From the NCBI GenBank assembly GCA_964351105.1, contig CAYGMC010000002.1, positions 11,010-56,086 on the forward strand: a DNA stretch of 45,077 nucleotides, in the 5' to 3' direction. Source of the stretch: an uncultured Candidatus Saccharibacteria bacterium. GTDB lineage: Bacteria; Patescibacteriota; Minisyncoccia; Phycocordibacterales; UBA2100. Below are positions 1 through 2,636 of the stretch, one piece after another. The notes under the pieces were generated by a model. The model made no database searches. It was not told the origin of the DNA and was given only the letters and a program-made list of their open reading frames with translations. Both the position numbers and the translations under genes were made by a program. Each line of letters opens with the position of its first letter. The stretch's first letter is position 1.

Positions 1-2636
1 AACTCAACCCGCGCGACTGGACTCTGAGTAACATCGCGTACATGAAAAAGCAGATCAAATCTATGGGGACTTCCTTTGACTGGTCGCGCGAGGTCGTTAC
101 CTGCGATCCCGCATACTACAAATGGACGCAGTGGCTTTTTCTGCAATTTTTCAAAAAAGGCCTCGTATATCGTAGAGAGACGGCGGTCAATTGGTGTCCT
201 TCATGCAAGACGGTCTTGGCAAATGAGCAGGTGGTGGATGGTAAGTGTGAACGATGCAGTACCGAAGTAATGCAAAGGCAAATGCTCCAGTGGAATATCA
301 AAATCACCGATTACGCGGACAGACTCGTTGACGACCTCGATGCACTCGATTGGCCAGAGCAAATTAAGGAATCCCAGCGCAATTGGATCGGCCGGAGCGA
401 AGGCGCGGAGGTAGATTTCTTTTTGGATTTCGGCAGTGCAGAGACAAACGCTCGTGTAGATAGTGCGGGCAAAAAAGCTCATCTCACCGTGTTTACTACG
501 CGCATCGACACGCTCTACGGCGCCACGTATCTTGTATTGGCACCCGAGCATCCCCTCCTTCGCCAAAGCTTCGGAGGGCAAGCGTTTAGTGCCATTCTCC
601 AGAATAAAAATGAAGTCGAGGAGTATATCGAGCAAGCAAAAAAGAAAACAGAAATTGAGCGGCTGACGGAACAAAAAGACCCTTCCACGGGCTCGGGGCA
701 GGCAAAGACAGGAATTGAGGTGAAGGGCGTACAGGCGATTAATCCAGCAACCGGAGAAAAAATACCTTTGTATGTGGCGGATTATGTACTCGGTCATTAC
801 GGCACGGGAGCTGTGATGGGCGTGCCCGCGCACGATGAACGTGATTTTGAATTCGCCAAAAAATATAATGTTGAGATCAGGGGGGTACTCGAGCCGCTCA
901 CGGAGCGAGCGTCCGGATTCGACGCGGTGAAAGCGGGAGAATCTTTTCAAGATAGATACGCAGCGATGGCTATTGTTAAACACCCAACCGAAGACAAGTA
1001 TCTATGCCTTCGATGGCAAAAGAATGATTTGCGCGGATTTGTTTCTGGCGGCATTGAATCGGGCGAGACCGCTGAAGAGGCTGCGAGACGCGAGATAACC
1101 GAAGAGACGGGTTATAAAAATCCGCGCCTTGTTCGAGCACTCGGACAAGTACATACAAAATTTTATCGTGTCGATAAGGGTGGCAATTTGTTCGGGCATT
1201 TTCAGGGGTTTCTTTTTGAGCTGGAGGATGAAGAGTACGAAGAACCAAGCAAGGACGAACAACTAATACACAAGGCTGAATGGGTCGCTGTAGACGATGT
1301 AGAAAACTTTATCAGCCGCGACGACATGAAAATTTTATGGTCGAGAATAAACGGCGATAAACCGTATTCCGAGAAAGGAATTCTTGTGAACTCGAACGAT
1401 TTCAATGGACTTACAACCGATGAAGCGAAAATTGCACTCACCGAAAAATTTGGCCGCGTCAAAACGACCTACAAACTTCGTGATTGGATAGTCTCGCGCC
1501 AACGCTATTGGGGAGTACCGATTCCCATTATTCACTGCGAGAAATGCGGAGCTGTTGCTGTCGAAGATTCGGATTTGCCCGTAAAGCTCCCCGATGTCGA
1601 AGATTATCTCCCCGAAGGAAGTGGTAAATCACCGCTTGCCAAAGCAGAGAAGTGGGTGAGGGTGAAGTGTCCGCAGTGCAAGGGGGACGCCGAACGTGAG
1701 ACAGATACGCTTGATACATTTGTAGACTCTTCTTGGTATTTCTTGCGCTACACGGATCCCAAAAACGACACGCAATTTGCAGACGCGCAAAAGCTCGCTT
1801 CGTGGATGCCTGTCGATCTCTACTCGGGAGGGGCAGAACACACGACGATGCATGTGCTCTATAGTCGTTTTTGGCAGAAGGCGATGTATGATCTCGGGCT
1901 TGTAAAAGACACAGAGCCGTACCAACGACGCATGAATCGCTCTCTCATCATGGGGCCAGATGGACAAAAGATGTCGAAGTCGAAAGGTAACGTGATCGAT
2001 CCCGATGAAGTGGTAGAGCGGTTGGGGGCAGACACGGTGCGTATGTATCTTGCGTTTATCGGGCCCTACAGTGAAGTGTCCAGTTATCCGTGGAATCCTG
2101 ATGGGGTAGTGGGCGTACGCAGATTTCTTGAGCGCGTATGGCGGGCGCAAGACTACATGCTCGACACCGACGTGGACGAGCTCGGTACTATACTGCATCA
2201 GAGCATAAAAAAAGTAGGCGAAGACATCACGCAATTGAAATTCAACACAGCAATTGCACAGATGATGATATTTTTGAACAAACTCGAGAAAGTTAAAAAA
2301 ATAGGACAATCACAGTGGCAAGCGTTCTTAATACTGCTCGCACCCTTTGCGCCGCACATCGCGGAAGAATTGTGGCACGAGGGGGGTAATAAAAGTTCGG
2401 TACATATCCAAGCGTGGCCAGACTACGACCCCGCACTTCTCGTTGAAGATGAAATATCTATTGCTATTCAGATCAACGGAAAGACACGAGGAGAGATACG
2501 GGTCGCGGCTGGAGCAGACAAAGCAGAAATTGAGCAAGCGGCTCGGGAAGCGGTAGCAATGAAATTACAAGGAAAATCAGTAATCAGAACAATTTTGGTG
2601 CCCGGCCGCCTCGTCAATTTTGTTGTGGGGGAGTAA
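1..2636 (+). CDS. leuS: Leucine--tRNA ligase (class Ia), 5' end cut by the window edge; carries an in-frame Nudix-domain insertion
   Basis: The frame is open from nt 3 (..[16 protein letters not shown]..), so the ATG at 42 is internal. LeuRS hallmarks are present: the Zn knuckle [13 protein letters not shown]..CERC, the CP1 editing motifs [16 protein letters not shown] and [39 protein letters not shown], and the KMSKS loop (QKMSKSKGN). TAA stop at 2634-2636. Confidence 0.93.
   Translation, partial: [877 protein letters not shown]
897..1367 (+). other. Nudix hydrolase domain (~155 aa) inserted inside LeuRS
   Basis: A complete Nudix box Gx5Ex7REUxEExGU reads [23 protein letters not shown] at nt 1047-1115. 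It is in frame with leuS (ORF-track aa 336-358). It is flanked by the LeuRS segments ..[14 protein letters not shown] and [14 protein letters not shown]... Confidence 0.8.

Follow-up and report, generated by a model that had tools for sequence, protein, structure and literature searches.

Aminoacyl-tRNA synthetases (aaRSs) rank with the most thoroughly studied of all enzymes, and their accessory domains have repeatedly revealed new biology, including editing, signaling, and the control of Ap4A. The principle of an aaRS body equipped with an extra catalytic domain is represented by the INS domain of prolyl-tRNA synthetase (ProRS), by YbaK and AlaX, and by NF040702 ([quoted passage not shown]), a named precedent that appeared in our NCBIfam scan. 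In the leucyl-tRNA synthetase (LeuRS) described here, the added domain is instead a Nudix pyrophosphohydrolase domain.

ApnA in the cell comes mainly from aaRSs and is removed mainly by Nudix enzymes (PMC4734340). In the axis of LysRS, Ap4A, and Nudix hydrolases (NUDT2 and PfAp4AH), which operates in trans, the synthetase makes ApnA and the Nudix enzyme removes it (PMC4734340). The logic that we propose below is the same, but the LysRS axis consists of separate proteins, whereas here a covalent link would join the two activities, with LeuRS (or ProRS) as the host.

The Nudix Ap4A hydrolases and RppH (3i7u, 1f3y, Thermus thermophilus Ndx1, Mycobacterium tuberculosis Rv2985, and Escherichia coli RppH) have the same fold as the inserted domain (TM score, 0.6 to 0.8) and share with it the canonical Nudix box, an aromatic side chain some 17 aa past it, and a conserved Glu further downstream. 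In contrast to these free enzymes, the domain found here is nested in a synthetase. To our knowledge, the signature of the insert family (a box ending in GY and invariant N395, W427, and R318) has not been described for those hydrolases. Full-text searches of the literature returned no description of a Nudix-LeuRS or of a Nudix domain in any aaRS, and tRNA synthetases go unmentioned in a 2017 survey of the Nudix clan.

The leucyl-tRNA synthetase gene

The window, by which we mean the whole stretch of 45,077 nucleotides that was analyzed, begins within a leuS gene. The features of this gene that are discussed below are as follows.

3 to 2636, plus strand: leuS, bacterial-type LeuRS (TIGR00396, alignment with T. 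thermophilus LeuRS, continuous open reading frame [ORF])
390 to 1472, plus strand: CP1 editing domain, approximately aa 130 to 490, whose C-terminal part contains the nested Nudix domain (PF13603 and T. thermophilus LeuRS alignment)
414 to 491, plus strand: short loop, aa 138 to 163, at the site where relatives have an alpha/beta-hydrolase domain (alignment of relatives)
495 to 512, plus strand: Thr-rich editing-site motif TTRIDT
801 to 836, plus strand: 12-residue editing-site motif including the conserved Asp at aa 278 (direct motif match)
897 to 1367, plus strand: inserted Nudix hydrolase domain, aa 299 to 455, 157 aa (Pfam, AF2, Foldseek)
1047 to 1115, plus strand: 23-residue Nudix box, aa 349 to 371 (fits GX5EX7REUXEEXGU)
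1161 to 1166, plus strand: aromatic pair F387-Y388 in the "X-loop" specificity position, at +16/+17 relative to the Nudix box (conservation)
1257 to 1259, plus strand: Glu419 downstream of the box, a candidate extra metal ligand or catalytic base (E in 120 of 120 sequences)
1968 to 1982, plus strand: KMSKS catalytic loop, aa 656 to 660 (direct motif match and 60-sequence alignment)

The leuS ORF lies in frame 3 of the plus strand and runs from nt 3, at the left window edge, to the stop codon at 2634 to 2636 without an internal stop or frameshift. The window edge cuts its 5' end, so that 877 aa and the stop codon are within the window, while approximately 100 N-terminal LeuRS residues, including the HIGH motif, are outside it. 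In full-length relatives, this motif reads HVGH or HAGH and is flanked by columns that are near-invariant in a 60-sequence alignment. Despite the absent N terminus, the protein scored 846.8 bits against the NCBIfam model TIGR00396 (leuS_bact; cut-off, 548.4) and matched the T. thermophilus LeuRS 1h3n with an E value of 4e-191 in phmmer. Pfam models matching the 877-aa fragment were the editing domain PF13603, tRNA-synt_1, Anticodon_1, and NUDIX (PF00293). The match to PF13603 (E value, 3.7e-54) is split into two stretches, the better of which covers aa 126 to 302 and profile positions 1 to 146 of 185.

The protein is a bacterial-type LeuRS, and its editing motifs and KMSKS loop are intact, as the sequence-only reading had stated of them. 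In the 60-sequence alignment, T166, R167, D169, and T170 of the TTRIDT motif are invariant, as are G267, T268, G269, A276, H277, and D278 of the second editing motif. Compared with canonical LeuRSs (1h3n and E. coli 4aq7), the window protein shares the editing motifs, KMSKS, and the overall domain order, but it has an additional 150-aa enzyme domain at the loop corresponding to T. thermophilus residues 365 to 374 and lacks the leucine-specific domain, which is located ahead of KMSKS in T. thermophilus LeuRS (approximately residues 583 to 636 are unmatched).

Elsewhere in the window, the Pfam match of the GluRS also falls into two stretches. An insertion suspected there was rejected, as the extra length stems from the start of the stop-to-stop ORF and the alignment with PDB entries shows nothing unusual. 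Scans of the window for Rfam families and for tRNAs gave no hits.

A Nudix domain nested in the CP1 editing domain

In the alignment with T. thermophilus LeuRS 1h3n, aa 299 to 452 of the window protein stand in for residues 365 to 374 only, and the segment of approximately 150 extra aa is therefore inside CP1 and not strictly after it. The borders of the insertion given by the sequence-only reading held, while its placement behind the CP1 region had to be revised to a position within CP1, between T. thermophilus residues 364 and 375.

That this in-frame segment is a Nudix domain, as was first proposed from the sequence, was confirmed by profile and structure comparisons. Within the 877-aa fragment, PF00293 matched aa 324 to 433 with 66.4 bits (E value, 3.3e-18), and positions 897 to 1367 alone scored 69.9 bits (E value, 2.7e-19), against a gathering cut-off of 21.1. 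Modeled alone with AF2, the insert gave a confident Nudix fold (pLDDT, 95.8; pTM, 0.89), and its pLDDT within the full-length model was 90 to 97. Foldseek returned 533 PDB matches at an E value of ≤0.001, the best of which were Nudix enzymes with TM scores of up to 0.83 (0.77/0.83 to 2azw and 0.71/0.82 to the Ap4A hydrolase 3i7u). Both AF2 and Foldseek point to the alpha/beta/alpha sandwich of the Nudix superfamily. The full-length model had a pTM of only 0.54, with a poorly modeled catalytic core because approximately 100 N-terminal residues are off-window, and the distance from the Nudix site to either LeuRS active site therefore cannot be read from it. Positions 897 to 1367 encode an entire Nudix domain that folds independently, has all catalytic residues of the Nudix box, and is nested within a CP1 surface loop, and the feature as a whole is almost certainly a Nudix domain nested in a LeuRS. 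An intein or another self-excising or mobile insertion was rejected, there being no Hint, LAGLIDADG, or endonuclease Pfam signal and no intein-type splice residues (C, S, or T at the start and HN followed by C, S, or T at the end) at the junctions (EP/LTER and KPY/SEKG).

The Nudix box is located at exactly the coordinates first reported for it, and it is the single match to GX5EX7REUXEEXGU among all six-frame ORFs of the window. Among 120 LeuRS sequences, G349, E364, E368, and G370 are present in all, E367 in 117, R363 in 116, and E355 in 115. All 120 have F or Y at position 387 and 114 have Y or F at position 388, while position 386 (+15) is occupied by K, Q, E, R, or H and never by Pro. Direct reading of the insert sequence revealed no SQPWPFPxS motif. 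Glu419 is invariant in these sequences as well as in a second alignment (A1) that takes in free-standing homologues. The retention of the catalytic box residues in 115 to 120 of 120 sequences, together with the invariance of E419, is a pattern typical of active enzymes. The insert is likely to be an active Mg2+-dependent pyrophosphohydrolase.

Distribution and recurrent capture of the Nudix domain

The search for orthologs with the same insertion point, which had been suggested as a check, revealed that all 120 closest LeuRS relatives (58 to 67% identical) carry the Nudix insert at the same site; the named ones among them belong to Kaiserbacteria/Paceibacterota. Mean identity among the relatives is 43% for the insert and 70% for the LeuRS body. 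When a 12-sequence alignment was used as the query against GTDB species representatives, a confirmed relative was found in at least 271 species-level genomes, and 78 of the best 80 loci were inside a LeuRS ORF, spread over many candidate-phylum names. The Nudix domain in LeuRS is thus a clade-wide feature of CPR (Patescibacteria) and not a one-off; the layout is of ancient origin, and purifying selection acts on it across a large block of this group. A catalytic domain of a different superfamily has been embedded in the proofreading domain of LeuRS and kept across hundreds of CPR lineages.

Approximately 278 of 373 mapped Nudix copies are at the site seen in the window. The same Nudix family also occurs at four or five other LeuRS loops, with one to three copies per LeuRS, and most of these sites are in or next to CP1. 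The alternative sites correspond to residues of approximately 210, 240, 376, 565, and 640 in the relative P0013. Copies at the same site in different proteins are 60 to 70% identical, compared with 27 to 46% for copies within one protein. In many second copies of multi-Nudix LeuRSs and in some ProRS copies, the box is altered (E to Q plus R to A, M, or C), and standard hydrolase activity need not apply to all copies.

The ProRS copies occur in a small clade of five DPANN-type proteins (641 to 674 aa), whose nearest ProRS relatives (482 to 490 aa) are without the domain. Here, the insertion is located between the anticodon-binding and C-terminal domains and not near an editing site. The same Nudix family has therefore been captured repeatedly by synthetases, in several LeuRS loops and in one DPANN-type ProRS, and its recurrence in LeuRS and in a class II ProRS of archaeal ancestry argues for a selected link between Nudix activity and tRNA charging in minimal genomes. 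Within the best 150 representatives, hosts other than synthetases were rare once fragments were set aside.

Outside LeuRS, the closest homologues of the insert are six free-standing Nudix proteins of Paceibacterota (P0001 to P0006; 155 to 170 aa), which share its signature residues and are 41 to 47% identical over 84 to 94% of the domain. Unlike the insert, these are independent genes, and the neighborhoods of four of them (P0003 to P0006) contained no conserved aaRS or translation link. In the sole case of its kind seen, at locus L062, a free-standing Nudix copy lies 15 nt upstream of leuS.

An alpha/beta-hydrolase in CP1 of related proteins

In 95 of the 119 closest LeuRS relatives, the first CP1 hairpin carries an additional alpha/beta-hydrolase domain of approximately 170 aa, as in the 1,125-aa forms; it is absent in the window, where a short loop (414 to 491) is found instead. 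The nearest relatives by LeuRS-body identity (77%) include three long forms with this domain (P0010 to P0012) and one short form (P0013), and 9 of the 10 nearest are long forms. Average-linkage clustering of pairwise identities, which gives a rough picture, suggests that its absence in the window is probably a secondary loss. Whereas the Nudix domain was kept in 120 of 120 close relatives, the alpha/beta-hydrolase is present in 95 and appears to have been lost repeatedly. CPR LeuRSs tolerate further insertions as well, in the form of other segments of approximately 130 to 190 aa.

Proposed function of the Nudix domain

We tentatively propose that the insert may be an Ap4A-type dinucleoside-polyphosphate hydrolase tethered to a synthetase that makes such by-products. 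Its substrate would be generic to aaRS chemistry and not leucine specific, with the dinucleoside polyphosphates Ap4A, Ap3A, and ApnN as the likeliest candidates. These would arise when ATP or another nucleotide attacks the enzyme-bound aminoacyl-adenylate, and the tethered hydrolase would destroy them at the source, yielding ATP and AMP. Such tethering would be in keeping with very small genomes that encode few separate housekeeping enzymes.

The best PDB sequence matches are Ap4A hydrolases, namely, that of Aquifex (3i7u; E value, 2e-5) and, by profile, that of lupin (1f3y; E value, 2.4e-7). Among the structural neighbors found by Foldseek are hydrolases of Ap4A and Ap6A, the diadenosine polyphosphatase Rv2985/MutT1, and RppH. 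Hydrolases of diadenosine polyphosphates tend to have a Tyr in the X-loop, approximately 16 to 18 residues beyond the Nudix box (PMC5389931), and F387-Y388 at +16/+17 gives the insert the X-loop aromatic of the Ap4A hydrolase/RppH group. Among the functional hypotheses of the sequence-only reading, namely, clearance of Ap4A or adenylate, proofreading, and regulation, these similarities lend weak support to the dinucleoside-polyphosphate option.

Several observations count against ApnA as the substrate. Identity to any characterized Nudix enzyme is only approximately 21%, and LeuRS is not known to rank with the synthetases that make the most Ap4A. The +17 aromatic rule describes a correlation within a family noted for convergent specificities (PMC5389931). 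The altered boxes of some copies and the four neighborhoods of free-standing relatives, with no conserved aaRS gene, also weigh against it. None of the NCBIfam Nudix equivalogs reached its threshold (the best, RppH, scored 26.2 bits against a cut-off of 118), and for this reason the insert is not filed as an Ap4A hydrolase or RppH member but described as possibly working like one.

A broader and more speculative idea, which we consider unlikely, is that the Nudix domain and the alpha/beta-hydrolase of sister proteins represent a new synthetase-coupled quality-control or repair activity that aaRSs of ultrasmall symbionts (CPR and DPANN) recruited repeatedly. It might cleave Ap4A-type adenylate by-products at the source or pyrophosphate or cap blocks on tRNA ends held by the editing domain. 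If so, a measurable shift in charging, fidelity, or alarmone levels would be expected once the activity is lost. The locus offers a testable system for the handling of synthetase by-products (Ap4A) or damaged tRNA ends.

The Nudix domain could also be a passenger, a Rosetta-stone type of fusion in which a house-cleaning enzyme works independently within tolerant surface loops of LeuRS, an essential protein with constitutive expression, and only coexpression and genome economy were selected. The free-standing homologues, whose neighborhoods are unrelated to translation, are consistent with this, as are the faster evolution of the insert relative to the LeuRS body and the acceptance of other insertions by CPR LeuRS. 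It is nevertheless not a likely account, given the repeated capture by synthetases (in ProRS and at five or more LeuRS loops), the scarcity of other hosts, and the retention of the Nudix domain in all 120 close relatives while the alpha/beta-hydrolase appears to have been lost time and again.

Alternatively, the domain may act as an RppH-like pyrophosphohydrolase on the ends of bound tRNA, removing a 5' triphosphate, an Np4N cap, or a toxin-installed 3'-terminal pyrophosphate as a repair step on the domain that handles CCA. RNA pyrophosphohydrolases are the best, albeit subthreshold, NCBIfam similarities, RppH and the decapping effector AvrM14 rank near the top in the structure and sequence comparisons, both hosts bind tRNA, and CP1, in or next to which most insertions lie, binds the tRNA 3' end. 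However, all of these similarities are at the superfamily level, the ProRS insertion is not near an editing site, and such tRNA modifications are without evidence in these organisms, which makes this activity distinctly unlikely.

The Nudix fold might instead serve as a noncatalytic module, whether as a nucleotide sensor, an allosteric regulator, or an extra tRNA- or protein-binding surface. Some Nudix-fold proteins are known to have nonenzymatic roles (PMC5389931), and several family copies elsewhere have altered boxes. In the clade of the window, on the other hand, the metal-binding Glu, Arg, and Gly residues of the box and E419 are conserved to the degree noted above, so that loss of catalysis is quite improbable here.

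Additional proofreading, in which the Nudix domain would hydrolyze noncognate aminoacyl-adenylates (pretransfer editing), might be expected from its location within the editing domain and from the alpha/beta-hydrolase of relatives, which suggests CP1 as a platform for hydrolases. Aminoacyl-AMP, however, is an acyl-phosphate anhydride and not a nucleoside diphosphate-X and is therefore an atypical Nudix substrate. With the canonical CP1 editing site fully intact and the same domain at a nonediting position in ProRS, we regard this role as very improbable.

Finally, a chimeric assembly or miscalled ORF has next to no chance, for although the gene is cut at the window edge (the sole caveat), the ORF is uninterrupted, base composition does not change at the borders (the insert has a GC content of 0.44 to 0.50, matching the flanks), the same insertion occurs at the same position in hundreds of independent assemblies from different projects, and its recurrence in all of the 120 closest relatives and 78 of the 80 best loci excludes the misjoin at the insert borders that had been raised as a concern.

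Annotation of Nudix-containing synthetases

The earlier statement that no described Nudix-containing LeuRS was known stands with respect to the papers covered by our full-text searches but not with respect to databases, in which the architecture is clade-wide and the proteins already carry automated labels. CP1 loops emerge as hot spots of domain capture, a finding of use in aaRS engineering and in the annotation of CPR genomes. The automated labels on such proteins include "class I tRNA ligase family protein" and "NUDIX domain-containing protein." The latter, like the current name "alpha/beta fold hydrolase," hides what is presumably the essential LeuRS of the cell.

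A Nudix domain nested in the CP1 region of LeuRS

The leuS gene of the window encodes a leucyl-tRNA synthetase (LeuRS) into which an entire Nudix domain is nested. The catalytic residues of this domain are conserved, and the functional motifs of the host LeuRS are intact. The features are as follows.

3 to 2636, + strand, frame 3: leuS, from the left window edge to the stop codon at 2634-2636, without internal stop or frameshift
414-491, + strand: short loop of 25 aa, at the site where relatives carry an alpha/beta-hydrolase
897-1367, + strand: Nudix insert, Pfam NUDIX (PF00293)
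1047-1115, + strand: Nudix box (23 residues), fitting GX5EX7REUXEEXGU

Since the window starts within leuS, and for no other reason, approximately 100 residues are missing from the N terminus of the LeuRS. Besides NUDIX (E value, 3.3e-18 in the context of the ORF), Pfam matches were found to tRNA-synt_1, to the anticodon-binding domain, and, in two stretches, to the LeuRS editing domain PF13603 (E value, 3.7e-54). The NCBIfam leuS equivalog was reached with 847 bits (cutoff, 548), and the LeuRS part belongs to the bacterial type. The editing motifs (18 residues) and KMSKS were found in the ORF, in agreement with a sequence-only reading that had described an in-frame insertion into a synthetase with these motifs intact. 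The leucine-specific domain before KMSKS is missing in alignment with the LeuRS of T. thermophilus (1h3n), of which residues ~583 to 636 are unmatched at window position ~1962-1982.

Nucleotides 897-1367 alone matched NUDIX with an E value of 2.7e-19 (69.9 bits; cutoff, 21.1), and the box is the sole match to its pattern among the six-frame ORFs of the window, so that the coordinates and description in that reading are correct. Its insert borders also hold, but its placement of the insert after CP1 does not: amino acids 299 to 452 stand in place of T. thermophilus residues 365 to 374 only, and the insert is thus nested in CP1, near the C-terminal end. Modeled alone with 51 homologues, the insert gave a confident Nudix fold, a beta-sheet/helix sandwich (pLDDT, 95.8; pTM, 0.89), and Foldseek matched it to hundreds of solved Nudix enzymes, with 2azw (TM score, 0.77/0.83) and the Aquifex Ap4A hydrolase 3i7u (0.71/0.82) among the top matches. 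Within the 877-aa model the insert retained a pLDDT of 90 to 97; the overall pTM of that model was 0.54, and therefore no geometry between Nudix domain and LeuRS can be read from it.

Conservation and distribution

PF00293 was detected in all of the 120 best LeuRS homologues (BLASTP identity, 58 to 67%), those with a named source being Candidatus Kaiserbacteria, Paceibacterota, or Parcubacteria. In the alignment of these homologues, G349, E364, E368, and G370 of the box are conserved in 120 of 120 sequences, E367 in 117, R363 in 116, and E355 in 115; R318, N395, L407, E419, and W427 are further conserved residues of the insert. On average, the insert is only 43% identical and the body of the LeuRS 70%. 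Among GTDB species representatives, at least 271 relatives were confirmed, and at 78 of the best 80 of these loci the Nudix domain lies inside the LeuRS ORF. Record names among the matches listed include Kaiser-, Vogel-, Adler-, Nomura-, Taylor-, Jorgensen-, Colwell-, Magasanik-, Komeili-, and Berkelbacteria, Sungiibacteriota, and others. The Nudix-LeuRS has been maintained over deep divergence.

A chimeric assembly is excluded by the presence of the insert in all 120 homologues and at 78 of the 80 best loci and by a GC content without a break across the insert. A Nudix-bearing LeuRS of the bacterial type is also encoded on one contig labeled Nanoarchaeota (locus L020, JBBSXX010000077.1), and this label may be a binning error.

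Possible function of the insert

The insert belongs to the Nudix superfamily but cannot be placed in any characterized subfamily. We propose that it would act as a pyrophosphohydrolase on a substrate tied to chemistry common to aminoacyl-tRNA synthetases (aaRSs), with dinucleoside polyphosphates (ApnA) the likeliest candidates. This suggestion draws on the best PDB sequence matches, which are Ap4A hydrolases (3i7u and, by profile, 1f3y), on structural neighbors that include Ap4A and Ap6A hydrolases, Rv2985/MutT1, and RppH, and on a conserved aromatic pair at +16/+17 after the box. A Tyr at this position is correlated with ApnA hydrolases and, in the human Ap4A hydrolase, makes contact with adenine (PMC5389931), and ApnA are mainly made by aaRSs and mainly removed by Nudix enzymes (PMC4734340). 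The ApnA assignment is nevertheless tentative, because the insert is only ~21% identical to any characterized Nudix enzyme, reaches no curated Nudix equivalog threshold in NCBIfam, and has no readable geometry relative to LeuRS, and because specificity motifs are convergent in the Nudix clan. Among the rival readings, a passenger fusion, in which LeuRS simply carries the Nudix domain, seems unlikely, and an RppH-like activity on tRNA ends is somewhat less probable than that. That a domain with so conserved a box serves as a noncatalytic sensor is improbable, and hydrolysis of aminoacyl-adenylates more improbable still.

Other insertion sites and hosts of the Nudix family

An exhaustive profile search returned 3,690 matches at E values of ≤1e-3 (128 at ≤1e-30), the best 150 being mostly LeuRS proteins or fragments. 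When 373 Nudix copies were mapped on a full-length LeuRS relative of the short form (P0013), the window's site (P0013 376/536) was dominant, with ~278 copies, and the same family was also found in four or five other LeuRS loops, including the following.

P0013 ~210: directly before CP1
P0013 ~235-246: first CP1 hairpin
P0013 ~562-567: just ahead of the strand returning to the catalytic core
P0013 ~636-644: in the CPxCGG...RETDT zinc knuckle

Some LeuRSs contain two or three copies (e.g., the proteins P0129 and P0130 and the 1,559-aa product of locus L048); further examples of alternative sites or multiple copies are P0131, L049, L021, L070, P0139, P0190, P0201, and P0143. Copies at the same site in different proteins are 60 to 70% identical and those within one protein only 27 to 46%; they therefore stem from distinct lineages of long standing and not from recent duplication within a protein. 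In many second copies the box takes a variant form, Gx5Qx7[A/M/C]Ex2EExGY, in which E-to-Q covaries with R-to-A/M/C, whereas the box of the window is canonical.

The family also occurs in five prolyl-tRNA synthetases (ProRSs) of 641 to 674 aa (P0253 and P0278 to P0281), between the anticodon-binding and C-terminal domains; the nearest ProRS relatives (482 to 490 aa) are without it, those named being Nano- or Woesearchaeota. The Nudix-bearing ProRSs form a small DPANN-type (archaeal-type) clade, with a canonical box in P0281 and an eroded first half in P0253, P0278, and P0279. The same Nudix family has thus been repeatedly recruited by synthetases of both classes. Free-standing genes of the family encode 155 to 170 aa. 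At locus L062, one such gene (2947-3444) lies 15 nt upstream of leuS (3460-6390), which itself holds an embedded, more divergent copy.

An alpha/beta-hydrolase in the first CP1 hairpin

In 95 of 119 close LeuRS relatives, the first CP1 hairpin contains an alpha/beta-hydrolase of ~170 aa (PF06821/PF12697), whose GxSxG nucleophile motif is retained in all but one (94 of 95); carriers include P0010 to P0012, P0022, and P0104, and P0194 has two such domains. Such an esterase in the editing domain could act as a further deacylase. Since 9 of the 10 nearest relatives of the window protein by LeuRS-body identity are long forms with this domain, it was probably lost secondarily in the window lineage. 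The Nudix domain has been lost in none of the close-relative set.

Previous descriptions

In freely accessible full-text literature, we found no paper on a Nudix domain in LeuRS or another aaRS, and a survey of the Nudix clan from 2017 says nothing about tRNA synthetases. Public databases hold hundreds of these proteins, automatically named "NUDIX domain-containing protein," "alpha/beta fold hydrolase," or "class I tRNA ligase family protein"; the architecture is thus common in CPR and apparently undescribed. Accessory catalytic domains in aaRSs are, as such, already known.

Genomic context

Three synthetase genes and dnaK lie within the 45 kb, leuS being accompanied by the following.

2614-4101, − strand: cysS, assigned by reading the translation
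~9746-11100: gltX
42138-43991: dnaK

The 3' ends of leuS and the convergent cysS overlap by 23 nt (2614-2636). No tRNA genes or above-threshold Rfam matches were found in the 45-kb window, and Pfam gave no match for a 997-aa ORF (17458-20448) or a 513-aa ORF (36874-38412). On the − strand, genes for very large predicted proteins (825 to 1,248 aa) are clustered at 12268-20448 and 27909-34191; the domains of these proteins include PG_binding_1, a reprolysin-like M12B metallopeptidase, LCCL, laminin-G, PKD, and CARDB.
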